DNA from: Sphingobacteriia bacterium
GTDB lineage: Bacteria; Bacteroidota; Bacteroidia; B-17B0; Aurantibacillaceae
Length of the DNA: 64,000 bases
Assembly (NCBI GenBank): GCA_009927275.1
Contig: RFNG01000086.1
Coordinates: 337 to 64,336 of the forward strand
Reading direction: 5' to 3'
This document shows, piece by piece, positions 2 through 7,852 of the stretch. Below the pieces are notes generated by a model. That model was not told the DNA's origin and did no database searches. It saw only the letters and a program-made list of their open reading frames with translations. A program made the translations under genes and the position numbers. Positions within the stretch are counted from its first letter, which is position 1; each line of letters opens with the position of its first letter.

Positions 2-478
2 AGTCAAGTATCTTATGGTAATATTAGTGGTGTTTTAGACGTTACCACATTACCTTTGGAAGCGCTTGAACTGCATCAAGATAAAGCAAATCCCTCTTCT
101 GCTGGTGCTACGGCATTTGACGATTATAATGCCAACTTTGCCACCTCCCCTGTAATAACTGGGGCCAATAATATTTATACCAGTGCAGCACCCTATACAC
201 GTCCTGTTGCAGCTGAAAAATACATTGCCGGACATAATGCCGCAACCGACTTTGTTGCCGGTGGAAGCTATTTATTATTAAATCCTACCGTTGGTGCCGG
301 TAGTAATTATTGGTACAGTATTGACTACCGTTTGGTACCAGGCTTACCCGCTATATTTCCAAATGCCCGTACCAATGCCGGTGTGGCGCGTGATATTGCA
401 ACCGTTTCAGGTGCTGGTACGTATGCACGGCCGGGCGTATACACCATGAATGTGAAATATGTTTTAGTTGAAAATTAA
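2..478 (+). CDS. 5'-truncated pilin/fimbrial-subunit-like protein, paralog of the next gene
   Basis: The frame is open from base 2 (SQVSYGNISGVLDVTTLPLEALELH...), so the true start lies upstream of the window. It is Ala/Gly/Thr/Asn-rich, ends in an alternating beta-strand PGVYTMNVKYVLVEN, and shares motifs with ORF 564..1214. Confidence 0.6.
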   Translation, partial: SQVSYGNISGVLDVTTLPLEALELHQDKANPSSAGATAFDDYNANFATSPVITGANNIYTSAAPYTRPVAAEKYIAGHNAATDFVAGGSYLLLNPTVGAGSNYWYSIDYRLVPGLPAIFPNARTNAGVARDIATVSGAGTYARPGVYTMNVKYVLVEN

Positions 479-520: not shown

Positions 521-548
521 AAGGCGCCGCTTAAGCGGCGCCTTTTTT
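521..548 (+). terminator. Rho-independent terminator/attenuator hairpin
   Basis: Perfect inverted repeat AAGGCGCCGC-TTAA-GCGGCGCCTT (521-544) followed directly by a T tract, 42 nt after the stop of ORF1. Confidence 0.85.
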
Positions 549-563
549 ATTTTGTAGGGTTAG

Positions 564-1214
564 ATGCCCTCATTTAAAACCATTTTTACTCTTATATTTT
601 GGCTGATTTTACAATGCGGAAAATCGCAATGCCCGGGCCCCTCGGGTGGAGCATCTAATTGCGATCCGCTACTTTCTGAAATCCGAATGAATACTTCCAA
701 TATGGTGGACTTTACGTTTGATTCGTTTTCAAAAATAAATGGAGGTATGGAAATTTTTGGTTCAACCCAAATTAAAATTATAACCGTTAATAATCCGGCA
801 TTAACCTGCAAGTGGAATTTGATTATGTATGTGTTTAATAGCGGTATACCTACCCCAGCCAATGCTTTTGATAATTTGGCACAATACGGAAACGGAAGCG
901 GTCAGTTGCCTACCCTAAATTACATACAGGTGCGTGTAACCAATATATGTGGCACTCCTGTTAATAATGGCGTTTGGCAAACCTTTGCTGCCTCCAGCGG
1001 ATCTGCCTTGGATATAATAAATAATATTGTTTTAACTGCAGCCGGAAATTGCAATACCTCAAAAGTAAATACAGCAGGTTCGTATTTAACCAATCCGGGG
1101 GAATATACATTTATAATAGATTATAAAATTTTACCGGCGGCCGGGATACCGGCTTTTCCGCTAACACCGGGTAGATACAGCGCCAATATTAAATTTTGTT
1201 TAAGCGAAATGTAA
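564..1214 (+). CDS. Secreted pilin-like subunit (putative minor/tip subunit), 216 aa
   Basis: Signal peptide MPSFKTIFTLIFWLILQCGKS-Q, several Cys, C-terminus PGRYSANIKFCLSEM. Shares YGNxSG, GSYL, IDY(R/K)xxP and GxPAxxP with ORF1. Confidence 0.6.
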   Translation: MPSFKTIFTLIFWLILQCGKSQCPGPSGGASNCDPLLSEIRMNTSNMVDFTFDSFSKINGGMEIFGSTQIKIITVNNPALTCKWNLIMYVFNSGIPTPANAFDNLAQYGNGSGQLPTLNYIQVRVTNICGTPVNNGVWQTFAASSGSALDIINNIVLTAAGNCNTSKVNTAGSYLTNPGEYTFIIDYKILPAAGIPAFPLTPGRYSANIKFCLSEM

Positions 1215-4204
1215 TGAAAATGCAAAAAACATGTTTTTGCTTAATTTTATTTTTTTGTTGCGCCGTTTCAATTAGTAAATCTGCAAGTAGTGCTGCACCC
1301 CCCGATTCATTACAGTGCAATTATCTTTATAAAGATGTGATACTTAAAGATCTTAATTTTGTTTCCAATGTTTTACGAATTGTAAACCTGTCGTCAAAAT
1401 CGGTTTCAATTACCCTTGAACATGCCATACCGGATTTTTGGAAAATTATTGGCACGCAGCAAGCCACCATTGGCTTAAATGCCAAAGACTCTATTTTTAT
1501 ACCGGTTCGATTGAGTCCGATACAAAAAAACATTGTTAGTGGATTTCGTTATAAAATTATTAGCATTGTTAAACTACCAGATGAATTTCGTCAAATACAA
1601 TGTGTTTTTTTAATTGAAAAACCAAGGGTGCACCGATTTTCAATGGATTTGCTATCACCAAAAACCGTTTACTTAAAAAACAATGAACGTAAAATTACAT
1701 CTAATCTGATTTTAGAAAATAAAAGTGATTTTTCAGAAAGTTATTTATTTAGTATTGATTATACAGGCAGAAACATTCGCCTAATCGATTCCAGTCAGCG
1801 TTTTAAAAAACAGGCCTATATAGGACTTATTAAACCCTATACAGATACCATCTCAGATATAATTAGCGATTTAAGTCCTGATAAAAGCATACCCGTTCGA
1901 ATAGATCCCAATTCTTACATAAATGGCGAATCGTATTATTATCCCATTCGCAATTCTGTATTTTATAAAGCCCGGCTATTAAACGGTTTTAAAACCGATA
2001 CCAGCAAGTCTAATCTGCAGCAAACTTTATTGTATACTAAACATCAAAATATTATTAAATTATATAACCGCTTTTACGTAAATAACAATTTTCAAAATGA
2101 AATCCCTTCATCCTTACGTGTTAATTTTTTTAATTTGGTAAGCAAACAACCCATAATGAATGTATTGCTGTTTGGCCAATCGCGAACAGAAAAACTTGGG
2201 TATTTAAGCTATTACCTTCAAAGCTATTTAAATACCTATAGTTTTAACAGCAATACATTAAGATCCTTTTTTGGTCAAATTAATTTTATAAATACTAAAT
2301 ACACCGTTTCGTTTGGCAGTAATCCGATTTTAAGCTTTTCAAATGGTAATAATGCAATGATAAACTCCAATGGTTTTGGCTTGGGATATAAACGCAGTTT
2401 TAAAAACAATCAGGAATTGGGCTTTGTTTTTAGTCGACCTCTGTATGCCGGCACCAGTAATTTAAATTTAAATTATGGTATAGGCTATCAAAAAACATTT
2501 CAACGCGCTTCAATGGGGCTTGTTTTTCAACAGCTTTTTCCAAATGCAACTAAAAATTATAAACTTATCAGACCTAATTTAACCTTGAATTTAAATGCAA
2601 AAAACATACTGATGCTGTATTCTAACTTAGTATTTGATACTAAATTGATAAATACCAATTACGGAATGAATTATTTTAAAAATTGGAAAAACAAAGGTTT
2701 TTCTAATGTCGCTTTTCAATACAATCAATCAACCAATTATAGTTTTTTAAGTCCACAAGTTTATAGCTATTCCAATGATAATTTAAATATATCTGTAAGA
2801 AATCAGTTTCTTGTTAAACAACAAACATTCCAGGTTTTTAACACATTTATACAAAATTCATTTTTAAACGTTCAAACACAAACACTCAATTACAACTCAA
2901 CTCTTAGTAATAATATTTTAGTAGGTCGGTATAAAATATTAAATAAAGCATTAATTCCAGGACTTTACATTGATCATAATTCCATATTTAATATTAATAC
3001 ACTGAGTTACGGGAGTATTTTAAACTTTAATAATTGGTTTTATAATAAATCTTTAATATCGAGTTTAAATTTAAGATCCGGTTACAATCATTTTTTAAAT
3101 AATAAATTGCCCAATTTTTTTACTGCACAGGTAAATGCTTTTGTATCTTATAAGCTATGGCGTATAAACGGCCGCTATTATTATGGCCCAATGAATTTTA
3201 CTAATTTGGTAAATAAGTTTAACGGTAAACTACCTTATGAGCAATTTGTATTTTCAAACATTACACATCAAATTCAATTTAAGAACAAACAATTTGTTTT
3301 AGAAAATAATGTGTTTTATAATTTAATTTTTTCAATTAACCGACACGTAACGGGCTTTTTTAGTCAGTTTTACTATTTTACCACCAGTGGATGGGTATTT
3401 AATGTAAACGTAAATTATAATTTAAATACCTATCAAAAGTATGTATTTAATTATAATCCCAATTCAAATTATAATAATATTGCAAGCGATGATCGCGTGT
3501 TTTCGAATACGTTTCAATTGGGTTTTGGAATTCGAAAAGATTTTAACATTTCATTACCCGCAAATCTCATTGTAAAACCTACACATAATCTAAAATTTAA
3601 AACATTTATTGATCTTAATTCAAATCGAAAATATGAACCGGGTGAACCGGGTATTGAAAATGCTGTAATCACTTTGGGTGATTACCAGTTTCAAACTGAT
3701 ACGGCAGGTGAGGCAAGTATTTACAGATTACAAGATGGCTGGTATAAATACTCGGTTATACTTTTACAAGACATCGGATCTTGGTTTCCAATAACCTACG
3801 ACAGTTTATTTCACGATGGTACACCCTGTTTTTATATACCATTTACACGAGGTGGTGAAATTTTAGGTAAACTGGAAGTAAAACGCGATGCATTGAGTGA
3901 AAAACTGATTGAAAAAATTGATGTTTCGGGAATTCGCATTCAGTTAACCGACAGCTCCGGAAAAACACTTACTACCTTAACAGATGTAAAAGGTAATTTT
4001 AAATTTAATGTACCTTTTGGTGATTATAATATGTACATCAATGATAATAGTTTTTCAAACGATTTTATGTTAAGTGAAAATCATGTAACATTTAATTTAA
4101 ATACCGACTATCCGGCATTTTACCAAAGCTTTTTTATTTTAGAACGGCTTCGCAAAACCAAAAAGAAAAAGTTTGATGCTAATGGAAATTTAATTATTGA
4201 ATAA
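1214..4204 (+). CDS. Large secreted/outer-membrane usher-like protein (~996 aa)
   Basis: Start reassigned to ATG 1214, which overlaps the upstream stop as TAATG. Signal peptide, N-terminal Ig-like segments (VSNVLRIVNLSS...DSIFIPVRLSP), a long central region of alternating aromatic/Asn strands ending TFQLGFGIRKDF, then an SdrD-B-like motif FIDLNSNRKYEPGEPGIEN and a carboxypeptidase-regulatory-like segment TDVKGNFKFNVPFGDY. Confidence 0.55.
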   Translation: MKMQKTCFCLILFFCCAVSISKSASSAAPPDSLQCNYLYKDVILKDLNFVSNVLRIVNLSSKSVSITLEHAIPDFWKIIGTQQATIGLNAKDSIFIPVRLSPIQKNIVSGFRYKIISIVKLPDEFRQIQCVFLIEKPRVHRFSMDLLSPKTVYLKNNERKITSNLILENKSDFSESYLFSIDYTGRNIRLIDSSQRFKKQAYIGLIKPYTDTISDIISDLSPDKSIPVRIDPNSYINGESYYYPIRNSVFYKARLLNGFKTDTSKSNLQQTLLYTKHQNIIKLYNRFYVNNNFQNEIPSSLRVNFFNLVSKQPIMNVLLFGQSRTEKLGYLSYYLQSYLNTYSFNSNTLRSFFGQINFINTKYTVSFGSNPILSFSNGNNAMINSNGFGLGYKRSFKNNQELGFVFSRPLYAGTSNLNLNYGIGYQKTFQRASMGLVFQQLFPNATKNYKLIRPNLTLNLNAKNILMLYSNLVFDTKLINTNYGMNYFKNWKNKGFSNVAFQYNQSTNYSFLSPQVYSYSNDNLNISVRNQFLVKQQTFQVFNTFIQNSFLNVQTQTLNYNSTLSNNILVGRYKILNKALIPGLYIDHNSIFNINTLSYGSILNFNNWFYNKSLISSLNLRSGYNHFLNNKLPNFFTAQVNAFVSYKLWRINGRYYYGPMNFTNLVNKFNGKLPYEQFVFSNITHQIQFKNKQFVLENNVFYNLIFSINRHVTGFFSQFYYFTTSGWVFNVNVNYNLNTYQKYVFNYNPNSNYNNIASDDRVFSNTFQLGFGIRKDFNISLPANLIVKPTHNLKFKTFIDLNSNRKYEPGEPGIENAVITLGDYQFQTDTAGEASIYRLQDGWYKYSVILLQDIGSWFPITYDSLFHDGTPCFYIPFTRGGEILGKLEVKRDALSEKLIEKIDVSGIRIQLTDSSGKTLTTLTDVKGNFKFNVPFGDYNMYINDNSFSNDFMLSENHVTFNLNTDYPAFYQSFFILERLRKTKKKKFDANGNLIIE

Positions 4205-5754
4205 TGTTTGTAATCCAAAATACTATACTTACAGGCGTGATGATAATGGTTGTTCAAATTGAACTTGCACAATCGCTGTCCCCTTATACATTTTTTAAAG
4301 ATGGTATTGGAATAAACCTAATAACTCAAGGTAATGGCGAACGTTGTAAACCTGCCCATGAACTTACATTGCGGTATTCAATGGGTTTTCATCCTGACAC
4401 CTTATTAGATCAATCAAATTCAAATTTTACATTTATTTTGGGTGAACGTGAGGGCTTAAAAGGATGGGACCTGGCATTACAGCATTTGCATATTGGTGAC
4501 AGTGCCGTTTGCATAATACCCGATTCATTGGCATACAGAGGACAAAAAATTGGCCGTTACCAAACACAAAGGCCACTTATTTTAAATGTAAAAATAATTG
4601 GTCAGCGGCCCGTTTATTTTGACATCCCAAAACATAATAGGGATAGCATCCGTGTTGGTGCAGGTATTAAAAAAATTATTTTAAAGCCGGGTAAAAATAC
4701 TGTACAGGCCTATCATTATGTAGATTTTACCATTACCGGATATATAAAAACAACGGAAGGTTACCGGCGACGATTTATACAGGGATCTAACACCCAATTA
4801 GGTTTAAATGTACAACTGGGCACAAAAAATTTTATTGAGGCCCTGGATAAAACCCTTTTAAGTATGAAAACCGGTGAAAAGGCTCATGTTATAATTGAAC
4901 CTTATGCGGGATTACAAAATGATAAAAAACAAGCTGGAATTCCGCCCAATAGCAGACTTTTTTTTGACATTGAATTACATTCTACTATTAATCCGTTTAA
5001 ACACTTGGCTTTAAAAGATACCATTACTAAAATACCTGGATTTTATTGTGTAGTTAATGGCGAAAAACGGAAAAATATTTTGCGTCAGGTTTTGCCTGAA
5101 GATGAGCAAATCATATCCACGCAAGGCTATTATTTTAAATTGGATTCAAATGGAAACGGAATCATTACTTCTAATTCGTACATTACAGGACGTCCGTTTA
5201 TTTTTAGAACCCGTTCATCTCTTTTTCACGCTGCATTTATTAATGGCTTTAAGCACTTGCAATTTGGTGATGAGGTTTTATTAATTTACGATTCGGTACC
5301 AGCGGCCAATGGTTTTGAAAAACAAGGTATGTATTTAGAAAGCGTTCGTTTTACACCTTTTCCGTTTTACAAAGAAGATACCCTTTTGCGACAAAAACAA
5401 AACCGCGTTACATATCAGGATGTTGTTCGCACTGATAATCCATTAAGCGTAGAAGCGCAAGACACCATATCCATACGTTTTACGGGTTATTATAAAACGG
5501 ATAACGGAAATCGTCGTATTTTTGATTCGTCAATGGATTTACAACGCGGTTTTACATTTGTGTTAAATGCTACATCCATTATACCGGGTTTAAAAGATGG
5601 TATTATAGGCATGCGCAGCGGTTCAAAACGTATAATTTATGTACCCTATTCGCTCGCCTATGGTACTGAAGGATTGCCTAAGCGAGGTATACCACCAAAA
5701 ACCAATTTAATTTTTGATGTAGAAGTTTTACATATTTCCAAACACAAGCTTTAA
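4204..5754 (+). CDS. Multi-domain FKBP-type peptidyl-prolyl cis-trans isomerase (about 4 FKBP repeats, one degenerate)
   Basis: Repeated FKBP signatures: LKGWDLALQHLHIGDSAVCIIPDSLAY; IEALDKTLLSMKTGEKAHVIIEP...GIPPNSRLFFDIEL; AFINGFKHLQFGDEVLLIY; IIPGLKDGIIGMRSGSKRIIYVPYSLAYG...GIPPKTNLIFDVEVL. TAATG overlap with the upstream gene. Confidence 0.85.
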   Translation: MFVIQNTILTGVMIMVVQIELAQSLSPYTFFKDGIGINLITQGNGERCKPAHELTLRYSMGFHPDTLLDQSNSNFTFILGEREGLKGWDLALQHLHIGDSAVCIIPDSLAYRGQKIGRYQTQRPLILNVKIIGQRPVYFDIPKHNRDSIRVGAGIKKIILKPGKNTVQAYHYVDFTITGYIKTTEGYRRRFIQGSNTQLGLNVQLGTKNFIEALDKTLLSMKTGEKAHVIIEPYAGLQNDKKQAGIPPNSRLFFDIELHSTINPFKHLALKDTITKIPGFYCVVNGEKRKNILRQVLPEDEQIISTQGYYFKLDSNGNGIITSNSYITGRPFIFRTRSSLFHAAFINGFKHLQFGDEVLLIYDSVPAANGFEKQGMYLESVRFTPFPFYKEDTLLRQKQNRVTYQDVVRTDNPLSVEAQDTISIRFTGYYKTDNGNRRIFDSSMDLQRGFTFVLNATSIIPGLKDGIIGMRSGSKRIIYVPYSLAYGTEGLPKRGIPPKTNLIFDVEVLHISKHKL

Positions 5755-5757
5755 ACT

Positions 5758-6642
5758 ATGAAACCAATTATACTTTTACTATCATTTATTTTATTACAAA
5801 TTGTTCATGCACAGGTTTTAAATACCGACAGCGGAACAGTGCCTAAACCCAATGCAATGGATAATACCGAACGGTCGGCCGGTGTTGCGGTGTCGCCCTC
5901 AACGCTTCGATTTAACGCCAAGCCCGGAACACTGCAAATTAAAACATTTAAAATAACCAACGACAGTAAACGGAATTATCAGTTCAATTTAATATTACAG
6001 GATTATGCCGTTGACGAACAAACAGGCAAAGAAGTATATATGCCTAAAAGTTACCGCTATGCCTTGTCTAAATACTTAAGTGTATCTCCAAATTTTATTG
6101 AATTAAAACCGGGTGAGTTTAAAAATATTGCTGTAACCATAGATATTCCTCCTGTTGATACTAATAATATTTCCATGTGGACTATGCTTATTGTTGATCA
6201 GGTAGTAAATAAAAATAAAAAATTAGAATTAAATAAAGCCAATGCCAATGCCCTCGCAATGGGAATTAATGTGGGCATGGGATTTGGAATTCGGATGTAT
6301 CAAAATCCACCAAACGTTAAAATAACCGATGTGGAAATATTAAAATTAGCATATGCAGCTCCCAAAACCAAAAAAAATAAAGGGTATTTACTCATTGATT
6401 TACAAAATATGGGAGATGGCATTTCCTACTGTTTAAATTATATTGAAATGACCCATTTTGCAACCGGTAAACAAACTAAATACAAAGTAAATCAATTAAG
6501 TATTATGCCAAAAAATAAAAAACAGGTAAAGTTTGAATTGCCCGCAGAATTAAGCTCAGGTAAATATTCAGCAGTTGTGGTTATTGATTTTGGTGATAAA
6601 GACAATTTACAAACCGCCGAAATAGAATTTAAAATAGATTAA
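5758..6642 (+). CDS. Periplasmic two-Ig-domain PapD/DUF916-like chaperone
   Basis: Signal peptide ending VHA-Q. Domain 1: GVAVSPSTLRF...FKITNDS...YLSVSPNFIELKPGEFKNIAVTIDIP. Domain 2: LQNMGD...IMPKNKKQVKFELPAELSSGKYSAVVVIDFG. This is the layout of pilus chaperone-like proteins. Confidence 0.65.
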   Translation: MKPIILLLSFILLQIVHAQVLNTDSGTVPKPNAMDNTERSAGVAVSPSTLRFNAKPGTLQIKTFKITNDSKRNYQFNLILQDYAVDEQTGKEVYMPKSYRYALSKYLSVSPNFIELKPGEFKNIAVTIDIPPVDTNNISMWTMLIVDQVVNKNKKLELNKANANALAMGINVGMGFGIRMYQNPPNVKITDVEILKLAYAAPKTKKNKGYLLIDLQNMGDGISYCLNYIEMTHFATGKQTKYKVNQLSIMPKNKKQVKFELPAELSSGKYSAVVVIDFGDKDNLQTAEIEFKID

Positions 6643-6643
6643 T

Positions 6644-7852
6644 ATGAAACCAGCTTACTTGGTTGACACGCTGCGAACACCCATTGGATCTTTGGGTGGA
6701 TCACTCGCATCTGTTAGGGCAGATGATTTGGCGGCCCATGTGTTACGCGAACTCGTAGCCCGAAATTCAGGCCTTGATCCACACGGTATTGAAGATGTAA
6801 TTTTAGGCTGTGCCAATCAGGCTGGTGAAGATAATCGGAATGTTGCGCGAATGGCGCTGTTACTTGCCGGATTACCTCAAAGCGTAGCGGGACAAACCGT
6901 TAATAGACTATGTGCAAGCGGATTAAGTGCGGCCATGGATGCTGCTCGCAGCATTATGTGTGGCGATTCTGATCTGCTTATTGCAGGAGGTGTAGAACAA
7001 ATGACGCGTGCACCATGGGTTTTAAGTAAATCGGAAACTGCCTTCGGACGTCAACAGGAATTGTATGATTCCAGCTTTGGCTGGCGATTTATAAATCCTA
7101 AAATGCACGAACGGTTTGGTACCGATGCCATGGGGGCCACCGCTGAACATTTAGCAGAACAATTTAATATCAGCAGAGAAGATCAGGATGCATTTGCTTT
7201 ACTGAGTCAGCAAAAAGCTTCCCTTGCCCAGGCATCCGGACGATTGGCTCGTGAAATTACGGGAGTTTTAATTCCACAAAAAAAAGGTGAACCGCGTTGT
7301 TTTGAAGCGGATGAGTTTATTAAACCTCAAACACATAAAGATGCATTATCTAAATTAAAGCCGGTTTTTAAAAAAAATGGTACCGTTACTGCAGGTAATT
7401 CCAGTGGGTTAAACGATGGTGCAGCTGCGCTTTTACTCGCTTCAGAAGCTGGCATTAAAACACATCAATTAAAACCTTTAGCCCGAATTGTAGCTTCTGG
7501 TGTATGTGGTGTTGAACCTCGCATTATGGGTATTGGCCCGGTTGAAGCAAGTTATAAGGCATTAAAACGTGCCGGATTAACAATACATGACATGGACCTT
7601 ATAGAACTTAACGAAGCTTTTGCTGCACAAAGTTTGGCATGCTTACGATCATGGAAATTAGATGACAATGACCCTCGCGTTAATGTAAATGGCGGTGCTA
7701 TTGCACTGGGACACCCCTTGGGTATGAGTGGTGCACGAATATTAGGTTCGGCAGCACTTGAACTCCAATATCGCAATTTACAGTATGCATTAGTAACCAT
7801 GTGTATTGGCGTTGGTCAGGGATTTGCAGTAATTATTGAACGCGCCTCATGA
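6644..7852 (+). CDS. pcaF: Acetyl-CoA C-acyltransferase (3-oxoadipyl-CoA thiolase, PcaF/PaaJ type)
   Basis: Thiolase motifs TVNRLCASG, NEAFAAQ, GHPLG, MCIGVGQG; RNVARMALLLAGLP. Confidence 0.85.
   Translation: MKPAYLVDTLRTPIGSLGGSLASVRADDLAAHVLRELVARNSGLDPHGIEDVILGCANQAGEDNRNVARMALLLAGLPQSVAGQTVNRLCASGLSAAMDAARSIMCGDSDLLIAGGVEQMTRAPWVLSKSETAFGRQQELYDSSFGWRFINPKMHERFGTDAMGATAEHLAEQFNISREDQDAFALLSQQKASLAQASGRLAREITGVLIPQKKGEPRCFEADEFIKPQTHKDALSKLKPVFKKNGTVTAGNSSGLNDGAAALLLASEAGIKTHQLKPLARIVASGVCGVEPRIMGIGPVEASYKALKRAGLTIHDMDLIELNEAFAAQSLACLRSWKLDDNDPRVNVNGGAIALGHPLGMSGARILGSAALELQYRNLQYALVTMCIGVGQGFAVIIERAS

Follow-up and report, generated by a model that had tools for sequence, protein, structure and literature searches.

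A putative usher-like outer-membrane platform for TLP-1-type pili in Bacteroidota

The window, meaning the whole stretch of 64,000 nucleotides analysed here (positions 337 to 64,336 of contig RFNG01000086.1 from a Sphingobacteriia bacterium), begins with a cluster of genes for exported proteins, within which an open reading frame (1196/1214..4204, + strand) specifies, from the ATG at 1214, a product of 996 residues referred to below as the barrel protein. It is preceded by genes for two related fibre subunits, A and B, and followed by genes for an FKBP-type prolyl isomerase and for a chaperone-like protein. The question raised by this locus is what role so large a barrel plays among the genes for a fibre. 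An earlier examination of the DNA letters and their open reading frames (the sequence-only reading) had proposed an usher-like protein, and the analysis described here leads us to conclude that the barrel protein probably serves as the outer-membrane platform for export and assembly in a chaperone-usher-like pathway, which would build pili of the TLP-1 type by donor-strand exchange. The conclusion draws on a domain layout at the level of structural models, on a cargo homologous to a fibre built by donor-strand exchange, on genetic linkage and on transcription in situ; it is the gene context (translational coupling to the gene for B, a TLP-1-like A, and a chaperone-like protein) that decides in favour of the usher-like reading.

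Predicted architecture of the barrel protein

The N-terminus of the barrel protein, MKMQKTCFCLILFFCCAVSISKSASS, is a typical Sec signal peptide, and all six peptides quoted in the sequence-only reading are found in the 996-residue product: LGFVFSR at residue 402, YGIGYQKTF at 421, FNVNVNYNL at 729, FQLGFGIRK at 767, DLNSNRKYEPGE at 800 and RKTKKKKFDANGNLIIE at 980-996. The central part (residues 273-780, 508 in all) contains 17.5% Asn, 10.4% Phe and 7.9% Tyr, and just 2.2% Asp and Glu together. An AlphaFold2 model computed from an alignment of 102 sequences (A2) has a mean predicted local distance difference test score (pLDDT) of 84.3 and a predicted template-modelling score of 0.69, and supersedes a first, weak model from 8 sequences with a pLDDT of 62. 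In the better model the signal peptide (1214..1306, residues 1-31), with a hydrophobic helix at residues 4-16 of low pLDDT, is followed by two immunoglobulin (Ig)-like domains (1307..1981, residues 32-136 and 140-256; strands at pLDDT 80-94), which are predicted to be periplasmic. Next come an Asn/aromatic-rich transmembrane beta-barrel of some 24-26 strands (2030..3553, residues 273-780); a C-terminal domain 1, which is an SdrD-B-like beta-sandwich bearing the conserved motif F.D.NGN...D..E (3581..3883, residues 790-890); a C-terminal domain 2, to which a carboxypeptidase-regulatory/prealbumin-like fold is assigned from the modelled strands and from matches to PF13620, PF17210 and PF17802 below their cut-offs (3926..4153, residues 905-980); and finally the Lys-rich tail RKTKKKKFDANGNLIIE with the stop codon (4154..4204), which is conserved as the consensus E.xRKxxxKKF. 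All these features lie on the + strand.

The count of barrel strands, like the reading of plug and pore given below, was taken from the DSSP string of the AlphaFold2 model alone: there are 27 strands in residues 273-780, most of them with pLDDT above 80, and since both ends of the barrel are predicted to be periplasmic, the number of membrane strands should be even, either 24 or 26. The barrel ends in FQLGFGIRKDF, which reads like an internal beta-signal; within it K775 is kept by at least 90% of the 102 homologues, and F777 is invariant in the 8 closest and is the majority or consensus residue among the 102. In C-terminal domain 1 the Ca-loop-like, SdrD-B-type motif picked out by the sequence-only reading corresponds to DxNxNG...E at residues 800-811 and has proved to be nearly invariant in the same set, D800 without exception and F798, N802, G803 and E811 in at least 90%. 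The only Pfam matches to the barrel protein itself are sub-threshold ones to SdrD_B (PF17210), CarboxypepD_reg (PF13620) and SpaA (PF17802), at residues 903-965 with E-values of 1e-4 to 2e-5. In the homologue P0020, PF17210 matches at the position of C-terminal domain 1, and the A2 profile matches the prealbumin-like repeats of NOMO2.

The topology of the C-terminal end can be judged from longer homologues, whose C-terminal extensions contain either two LysM modules (E 2e-20) or a SPOR module (27 and 21.5 bits, above the cut-off). In P0011, P0013 and P0020 (about 1150-1260 residues) these modules lie, via a linker, beyond the conserved Lys-rich tail, which argues that the C-terminal end is periplasmic, as it is in ushers. 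The layout of periplasmic Ig domains, large barrel and two beta-sandwiches put forward in the sequence-only reading is thus matched both by the model and by the LysM and SPOR modules. An OmpA domain is present in P0009, a marginal relative (E 1.4e-8, with 17% of the query covered), and two further homologues, P0068 and P0069, carry 470-615 additional residues at the N-terminus instead.

When the model was compared with the Protein Data Bank (PDB) by Foldseek, the best matches were FimD/PapC ushers, aligned across about 800 columns with E-values of 1.1e-11 to 4e-7, the top entries being 9FW9_D, 3RFZ_E, 9FY9_D, 6E14_D and 7LHH_C (1e-11 to 1e-8); the first, weaker model gave the same ranking, with ushers on top. 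The translocation domain of FimD alone (3OHN) has a template-modelling (TM) score of 0.43 to the barrel. Over about 260 columns the N-terminal Ig pair is also matched by tandem Ig proteins, among them two-domain chaperones of the PapD type. Homology between the N-terminal Ig domain of the barrel protein and Ig domain 1 of the chaperone-like protein was considered as well, and is not claimed, the hhalign probability of 30% being weak.

Members of the barrel family are numerous. When 1.84 billion representatives were searched exhaustively with a profile, 1639 matches were obtained; 270 clusters reach E ≤ 1e-30, over 100 members being of full length, and together with the transcripts found in river metatranscriptomes the 270 clusters establish that the open frame is not a chance one. 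They also overturn the impression of a very rare family that had been given by a word-index search (9 matches, 8 relatives). The antisense frame at 560-862 and other short antisense frames in the locus are taken as spurious. Related loci were collected with an 8-sequence alignment of the barrel protein, and all those named belong to Bacteroidota, including Sediminibacterium and metagenome-assembled genomes of Bacteroidia and Flavobacteriia. Apart from the sub-threshold matches above, neither the barrel protein nor the pilins were matched by any model in Pfam or NCBIfam, and the homologues whose source names were seen carried only the label 'hypothetical protein'. In our literature search neither the barrel family nor the gene cluster was found to have been described.

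The fibre subunits, their partners and the conservation of the gene set

The major fibre subunit A (2..478, +) is truncated by the start of the window; the full gene, for 252-257 residues, is at G000:C100:41/56-814, which is locus L005. A phmmer search of PDB sequences with A found 9IKK_A (E 1.9e-56) and 9IKJ_A (E 2.9e-56), at about 50% identity over the full length and with the N-terminal strand conserved, and a profile of A and B matched the same structures at E 1.5e-42. These are the fibres TLP-1a and TLP-1b (PDB 9IKJ/9IKK), reported by CryoSeek from Tsinghua Lotus Pond water (Wang et al., PNAS 2024, PMC11494351). Solved by cryo-EM at high resolution, they are tubules of 8 nm in which each protomer n has its Ig fold completed by the N-terminal strand of protomer n+4, and no gene, organism or machinery was named for them, the authors' metagenome and mass spectra having given no match (PMC11494351). 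No gene, host or machinery is added by later papers on TLP-1 that our literature search covered. In the phmmer alignment to the TLP-1a/b chains LVDEQNVTITMDLQPILQL of A is aligned with the donor strand LISEQNVTVTMDLQPVLQL, and the predicted mature N-terminus of A, QLVDEQNVTITMDL, falls on their donor strand, the predicted signal-peptidase site giving the same N-terminus as in the solved chains. A is thus akin to TLP-1a/b over its whole length, donor strand included, and the window organism is, moreover, a freshwater or river bacterium; at only about 50% identity, however, TLP-1a/b do not themselves come from this organism. The published work differs from the present locus in that it concerns the fibre only, the barrel protein being absent from the solved structure.

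The minor subunit B (564..1214, +) is a paralogue of A, rich in Cys and without the N-terminal donor strand. The motifs DF.FD, W.L, IDYR and PG.Y are invariant in both proteins, and tblastn cross-matches between the two have E-values of 1e-8 to 1e-13. B aligns to A from the second strand on, the Cys-rich stretch QCPGPSGGASNCDP replacing the donor strand. In classical systems a subunit without a donor strand marks the tip or the first subunit of the fibre, and B is a candidate for a tip or initiator subunit here. No type IX secretion system (T9SS) C-terminal domains and no lipoprotein signals were found in the subunits.

The chaperone-like protein (5758..6642, +) has 294 residues, a signal peptide and two Ig domains, the last strand of domain 1 lying around NISMWTMLIVDQ. 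It is predicted to be periplasmic: no membrane helix was found in it, and its C-terminal end, ...AEIEFKID, contains no hydrophobic helix. PF06030 (WxLIP_PGBD/DUF916) is matched in all nine aligned homologues, the best E-value being 8.3e-7, although the bit scores shown for two members, 20.8 and 19.3, are below the cut-off of 27.3 bits; an MSP domain is matched in eight of the nine and PapD_N in one.

The four genes for the chaperone-like protein, A, B and the barrel protein travel together. When 13 related loci were searched by tblastn with the five window proteins, these four were syntenic in all seven metagenomic loci with adequate flanks. Two gene orders are seen where flanks are available: chaperone-like, A, B, barrel in L002, L003, L008, L009, L012, L013 and L014, and A, B, barrel, FKBP, chaperone-like in the window, L004, L006 and L007. 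The chaperone-like gene adjoins barrel or pilin genes in 12 of the 13 loci with flanks, and synteny is kept in all 12 related loci that have sufficient flank, down to about 20-25% identity. In five more distant genomes the barrel gene (E 1e-43 to 1e-251) is again found within such a cluster, adjacent to the chaperone-like gene in four of them, and all five encode small pilin paralogues (one to five per genome), which begin with a donor-strand-like segment and carry a G.Y...V.Y motif at the C-terminus. Three of the five also encode, adjoining the barrel gene, an adhesin-like secreted protein of 339-478 residues with the C-terminal motif of the pilins, ending in ..TYS.NVYYSFTAI or PGTYTTYVYFVIVPN (L019:5545-6981, -; L020:10546-11565, -; L021:10221-11657, +), which looks like a two-domain tip adhesin. 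Upstream in distant versions of the cluster there are up to five pilin paralogues in tandem, of 181 residues each.

Co-occurrence was examined in 401 genomes sampled evenly across the phylum Bacteroidota. A full-length barrel protein, the pilin family and a strong chaperone match were each found in 8 genomes, which were the identical 8 in every case, and the other 393 have neither barrel nor pilin. A further 38 genomes, from other Bacteroidota classes, have weaker chaperone-like matches (E 1e-6 to 1e-25), with no barrel or pilin match at the thresholds used (examples are G069:C30:15807-16493 and G285:C6:69547-70233), and these may represent more diverged systems or another use of the fold. In the complete genome G083 there are seven dispersed, near-identical genes of the pilin family (all at E of about 3e-43) and a single barrel gene.

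The genes for B and the barrel protein, and those for the barrel protein and the FKBP protein, overlap by 1 nucleotide at stop and start (TAATG), the chaperone-like gene following 3 nucleotides further on, and to judge from these junctions the B, barrel and FKBP genes are translationally coupled. Between the genes for A and B lies a GC-rich hairpin (521..544, +) with a perfect 10-bp stem, 8 pairs of which are GC, followed by the T-run TTTTATTTT; it looks like an intrinsic terminator or attenuator. The locus is present at more than 99% identity in four river metatranscriptomes, in which contigs of gene A reach depths of 128-610, while B and the barrel gene are patchily covered, with a downstream depth of 2-10, all these values being assembler contig depths, which are a crude measure and may include DNA. 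In two of them, X26 and X28, the RNA contigs of gene A end at 496 and 436, before the hairpin, and depth falls from 496-611 to 3-10, or about 50- to 100-fold; in the other two the high-depth contig continues to about 1100-1700 and then drops. The step in depth is consistent with attenuation that keeps the pilin-to-machinery ratio high.

Assembly mechanism and alternative roles for the barrel

A classical usher is a monomeric barrel of 24 strands, with a plug domain of about 75 residues inserted between strands 6 and 7. With FimD/PapC (PF00577; 3RFZ, 9FW9, 7LHG) the barrel protein has in common the order of its parts (N-terminal periplasmic domain or domains, large barrel, two periplasmic C-terminal beta-sandwiches), an operon that also encodes a two-Ig chaperone-like protein, a major pilin with a donor strand and a minor subunit without one, and a terminator-like hairpin after the major pilin gene. 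It differs in having no detectable sequence homology to them, in bearing two N-terminal Ig domains, in a barrel of perhaps 26 strands rather than 24, with no inserted plug visible in the DSSP string, in C-terminal domains of the SdrD-B and prealbumin types, one of them with a Ca-site-like motif, and in its origin in Bacteroidota. The usher-like reading made from the sequence is supported by fold, layout and context (FimD/PapC as best Foldseek matches; a donor-strand pilin, its strand-less paralogue and a two-Ig chaperone-like protein as neighbours). There is no sequence relationship to the usher family, for which neither a model match nor an usher match was found. Classical usher-family membership is ruled out by the Pfam, NCBIfam, phmmer and profile searches, and on the strength of these comparisons the barrel protein is usher-like, and not a member of the classical usher family.

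In the mechanism that we envisage, Sec exports all five products, as their signal peptides show, and in the periplasm the two-Ig chaperone-like protein would cap the open groove of A and B by donor-strand complementation, while the multi-FKBP isomerase, in the window's sub-clade, might help folding. The N-terminal Ig pair of the platform would take up the complexes of chaperone and subunit, and the barrel of about 26 strands would be the conduit for the subunits. The periplasmic C-terminal beta-sandwiches could grip the base of the growing fibre, as the C-terminal domains of FimD do, with a tether to peptidoglycan in those relatives that have LysM or SPOR modules. B, lacking a donor strand, would start the fibre, and each A would then fill the groove of a previously added subunit with its N-terminal strand QLVDEQNVTITMDL, as the homologous TLP-1 structure shows; the hairpin after A would hold pilin mRNA far above that of the machinery, with the caveats on contig depth already given.

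Several results weigh against a platform of this kind. The Pfam models Usher (PF00577), PapC_N (PF13954) and PapC_C (PF13953) have no match to the barrel protein at E ≤ 0.1, its NCBIfam scan gave no match, phmmer with the barrel protein against PDB sequences found nothing, and the profile of 102 sequences, run against the whole set of PDB sequences, retrieved no usher at E ≤ 10. Global TM-scores to ushers are low (0.27/0.36); MtrB, a 26-strand barrel, fits the barrel about equally by TM-score (0.30/0.44, E 3.6e-5), and TonB-dependent receptors are also matched in Foldseek at E of about 1e-5. The check set beforehand for an usher, 24 strands plus a plug, is not borne out as worded: the strand number is 27 by DSSP and 24-26 by parity, and nothing of usher size is inserted anywhere in the barrel, the sole irregular segment and candidate for a plug being residues 340-387, 48 residues that form a short helix and four short strands. 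The n+4 donor in the TLP-1 fibre implies four separate donor-strand chains (PMC11494351), for which a single usher extending one chain offers no simple explanation. The link between the barrel protein and the fibre is drawn from genes and models only, and the crudeness of the RNA depths counts here too.

Some of these points would sit more comfortably with a barrel that is a secretion channel alone, through which the subunits exit singly, the fibre then polymerising outside the cell, nucleated by B and with no usher-type catalysis. Curli (CsgG) and TasA/TapA fibres are formed in this way, by secretion of subunits and subsequent extracellular polymerisation. Four lateral donor-strand chains with an n+4 donor suit extracellular self-assembly better than extrusion of a single chain, the plug is not visible, TLP-1 fibrils were obtained as free fibres from filtered pond water (PMC11494351), and a paper on archaeal cannulae reports in its title a donor-strand polymerisation that is chaperone-free (PMC12518558). 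Nevertheless we consider a mere channel unlikely, since the periplasmic domains, a pair at each terminus, copy a layout that in ushers is made for the handover of subunits from the chaperone, a dedicated chaperone-like gene is always linked, and the peptidoglycan-binding extensions of homologues suggest a fixed, load-bearing base. Those same extensions (LysM, SPOR and OmpA-type), together with Ig-like domains that could bind a terminal subunit, might be taken to mean that the barrel protein is an anchor or base plate fixing the fibre to the envelope, with export left to another system; but no other exporter is conserved across the clusters, the subunits have neither T9SS C-terminal domains nor lipoprotein signals, and a barrel of some 500 residues is much bigger than an anchor requires, so that this role appears quite improbable.

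It would be more surprising still if the barrel protein were an unrelated large porin or transporter of the LptD, MtrB or TonB-receptor kind, lying beside the fibre genes by coincidence, and we give this very little credence. Its structural basis is the MtrB match (which has the top TM-score for the barrel, 0.44), the TonB-dependent receptors, and LptD, found with the first model at E 3e-4 to 8e-4, along with the missing usher sequence signature. MtrB and LptD have barrels of 26 strands and so are of similar size, but their flanking domains, partners and gene neighbourhoods are different, and the Foldseek E-value of MtrB compares with 1e-11 for the ushers. Synteny down to about 20-25% identity in 12 loci, the exact co-occurrence with the pilin family (all 8 carriers against none of the 393 other genomes) and the translational coupling all speak against coincidence, as does the lack of a TonB plug, an LptD jellyroll or any partner gene of those systems. 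The sequence-only reading had likewise recognised no T9SS C-terminal domain and no TonB-receptor signature, and the Pfam and NCBIfam scans agree: Por_Secre_tail, Plug and TonB_dep_Rec gave no match in the barrel protein, nor, with Pfam, in the further subunits scanned.

The reading of the barrel protein as an export and assembly platform may be taken a step further, to a proposal that we put forward only tentatively and hold to be somewhat short of an even chance. It is that the protein represents a new class of pilus platform, arisen independently or diverged beyond recognition, with a plug-less barrel of about 26 strands, two Ig domains in tandem as receiver and a C-terminus of Ca-site and prealbumin type, which with a DUF916-like periplasmic chaperone would build the four-chain, tubular TLP-1 pili of freshwater Bacteroidota. 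Such a class would, if real, amount to a second chaperone-usher principle in diderm bacteria. The known pili of Bacteroidota are the protease-matured type V pili (FimA/Mfa1), and to our knowledge chaperone-usher pili have not been described in this phylum. A pore that resembles ushers yet is unrelated in sequence to PapC/FimD would broaden the range of donor-strand-exchange assembly, and would raise the question of how a tubule of four chains can be extruded. For the orphan TLP-1a/b fibre, the locus and its relatives offer candidate genes, a phylum of origin and an assembly machine open to test.

Resemblance to WxL pili, habitat and neighbouring genes

The DUF916 match of the chaperone-like protein invites comparison with the WxL pilins of Enterococcus, whose polymerisation by donor-strand exchange is primed by ElrE, a membrane-anchored DUF916/DUF3324 chaperone, in an Elr/WxL pilus system that is reported as confined to Bacillota (bioRxiv 10.64898/2026.10.17.759780). 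Besides the match to PF06030 in nine of nine homologues, below the cut-off, there is a likeness in the last strand of the pilins: PGVYTMNVKYVLVEN (window 432-475) and PGRYSANIKFCLSEM (1170-1211) are spaced as is AYKTTITWTLANTPA of ElrD, in the pattern Yxxx[IV]x[WYF]xL. The invariant W-x-L is also found mid-sequence in A and B. The chaperone-like protein, in contrast to ElrE, has no membrane anchor, and Elr pili are sortase-anchored and have no outer-membrane component. Homology of the pilins to WxL pilins was tried, with the mature form of ElrD translated from the synthetic insert printed in the preprint, 24 homologues of it gathered, and hhalign run against the pilin profiles; it was not supported, the probabilities being 0.1% (single sequence), 3.7% and 18% (profiles), with only the C-terminal strand aligned. 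PF13731 (WxL) had no match in the genome at E ≤ 10, nor in 23 subunits, and PF11797 had none in the chaperone-like protein. As a lead, not a result, the WxL/Elr connection would mean, if true, that the ancestry of the system might be common with Gram-positive WxL/ElrE rather than with proteobacterial Pap/Fim.

About 90% of the sampled words of the 6.7-kb locus are present in some 20 freshwater, river and other aquatic metagenomes, and the pilin is among the well-expressed genes of its carrier in situ; the fibres may therefore add to the fibril load of natural waters.

The FKBP-type prolyl isomerase (4204..5754, +) is an exported multi-domain protein in which PF00254 matches three stretches (E 8.6e-48). 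It scores 97.5 bits against the NCBIfam model for BamJ of the beta-barrel assembly machinery, for which the cut-off is 100 bits. Its gene is confined to the sub-clade with the order A, B, barrel, FKBP, chaperone-like, that is the window, L004, L006 and L007, and is absent from the other loci. Downstream, a thiolase gene (6644-7852, +) starts 1 nucleotide past the stop codon of the chaperone-like gene, and RNA contigs of 6-9 kb span the junction; housekeeping genes may therefore share a transcript with the 3' part of the locus.

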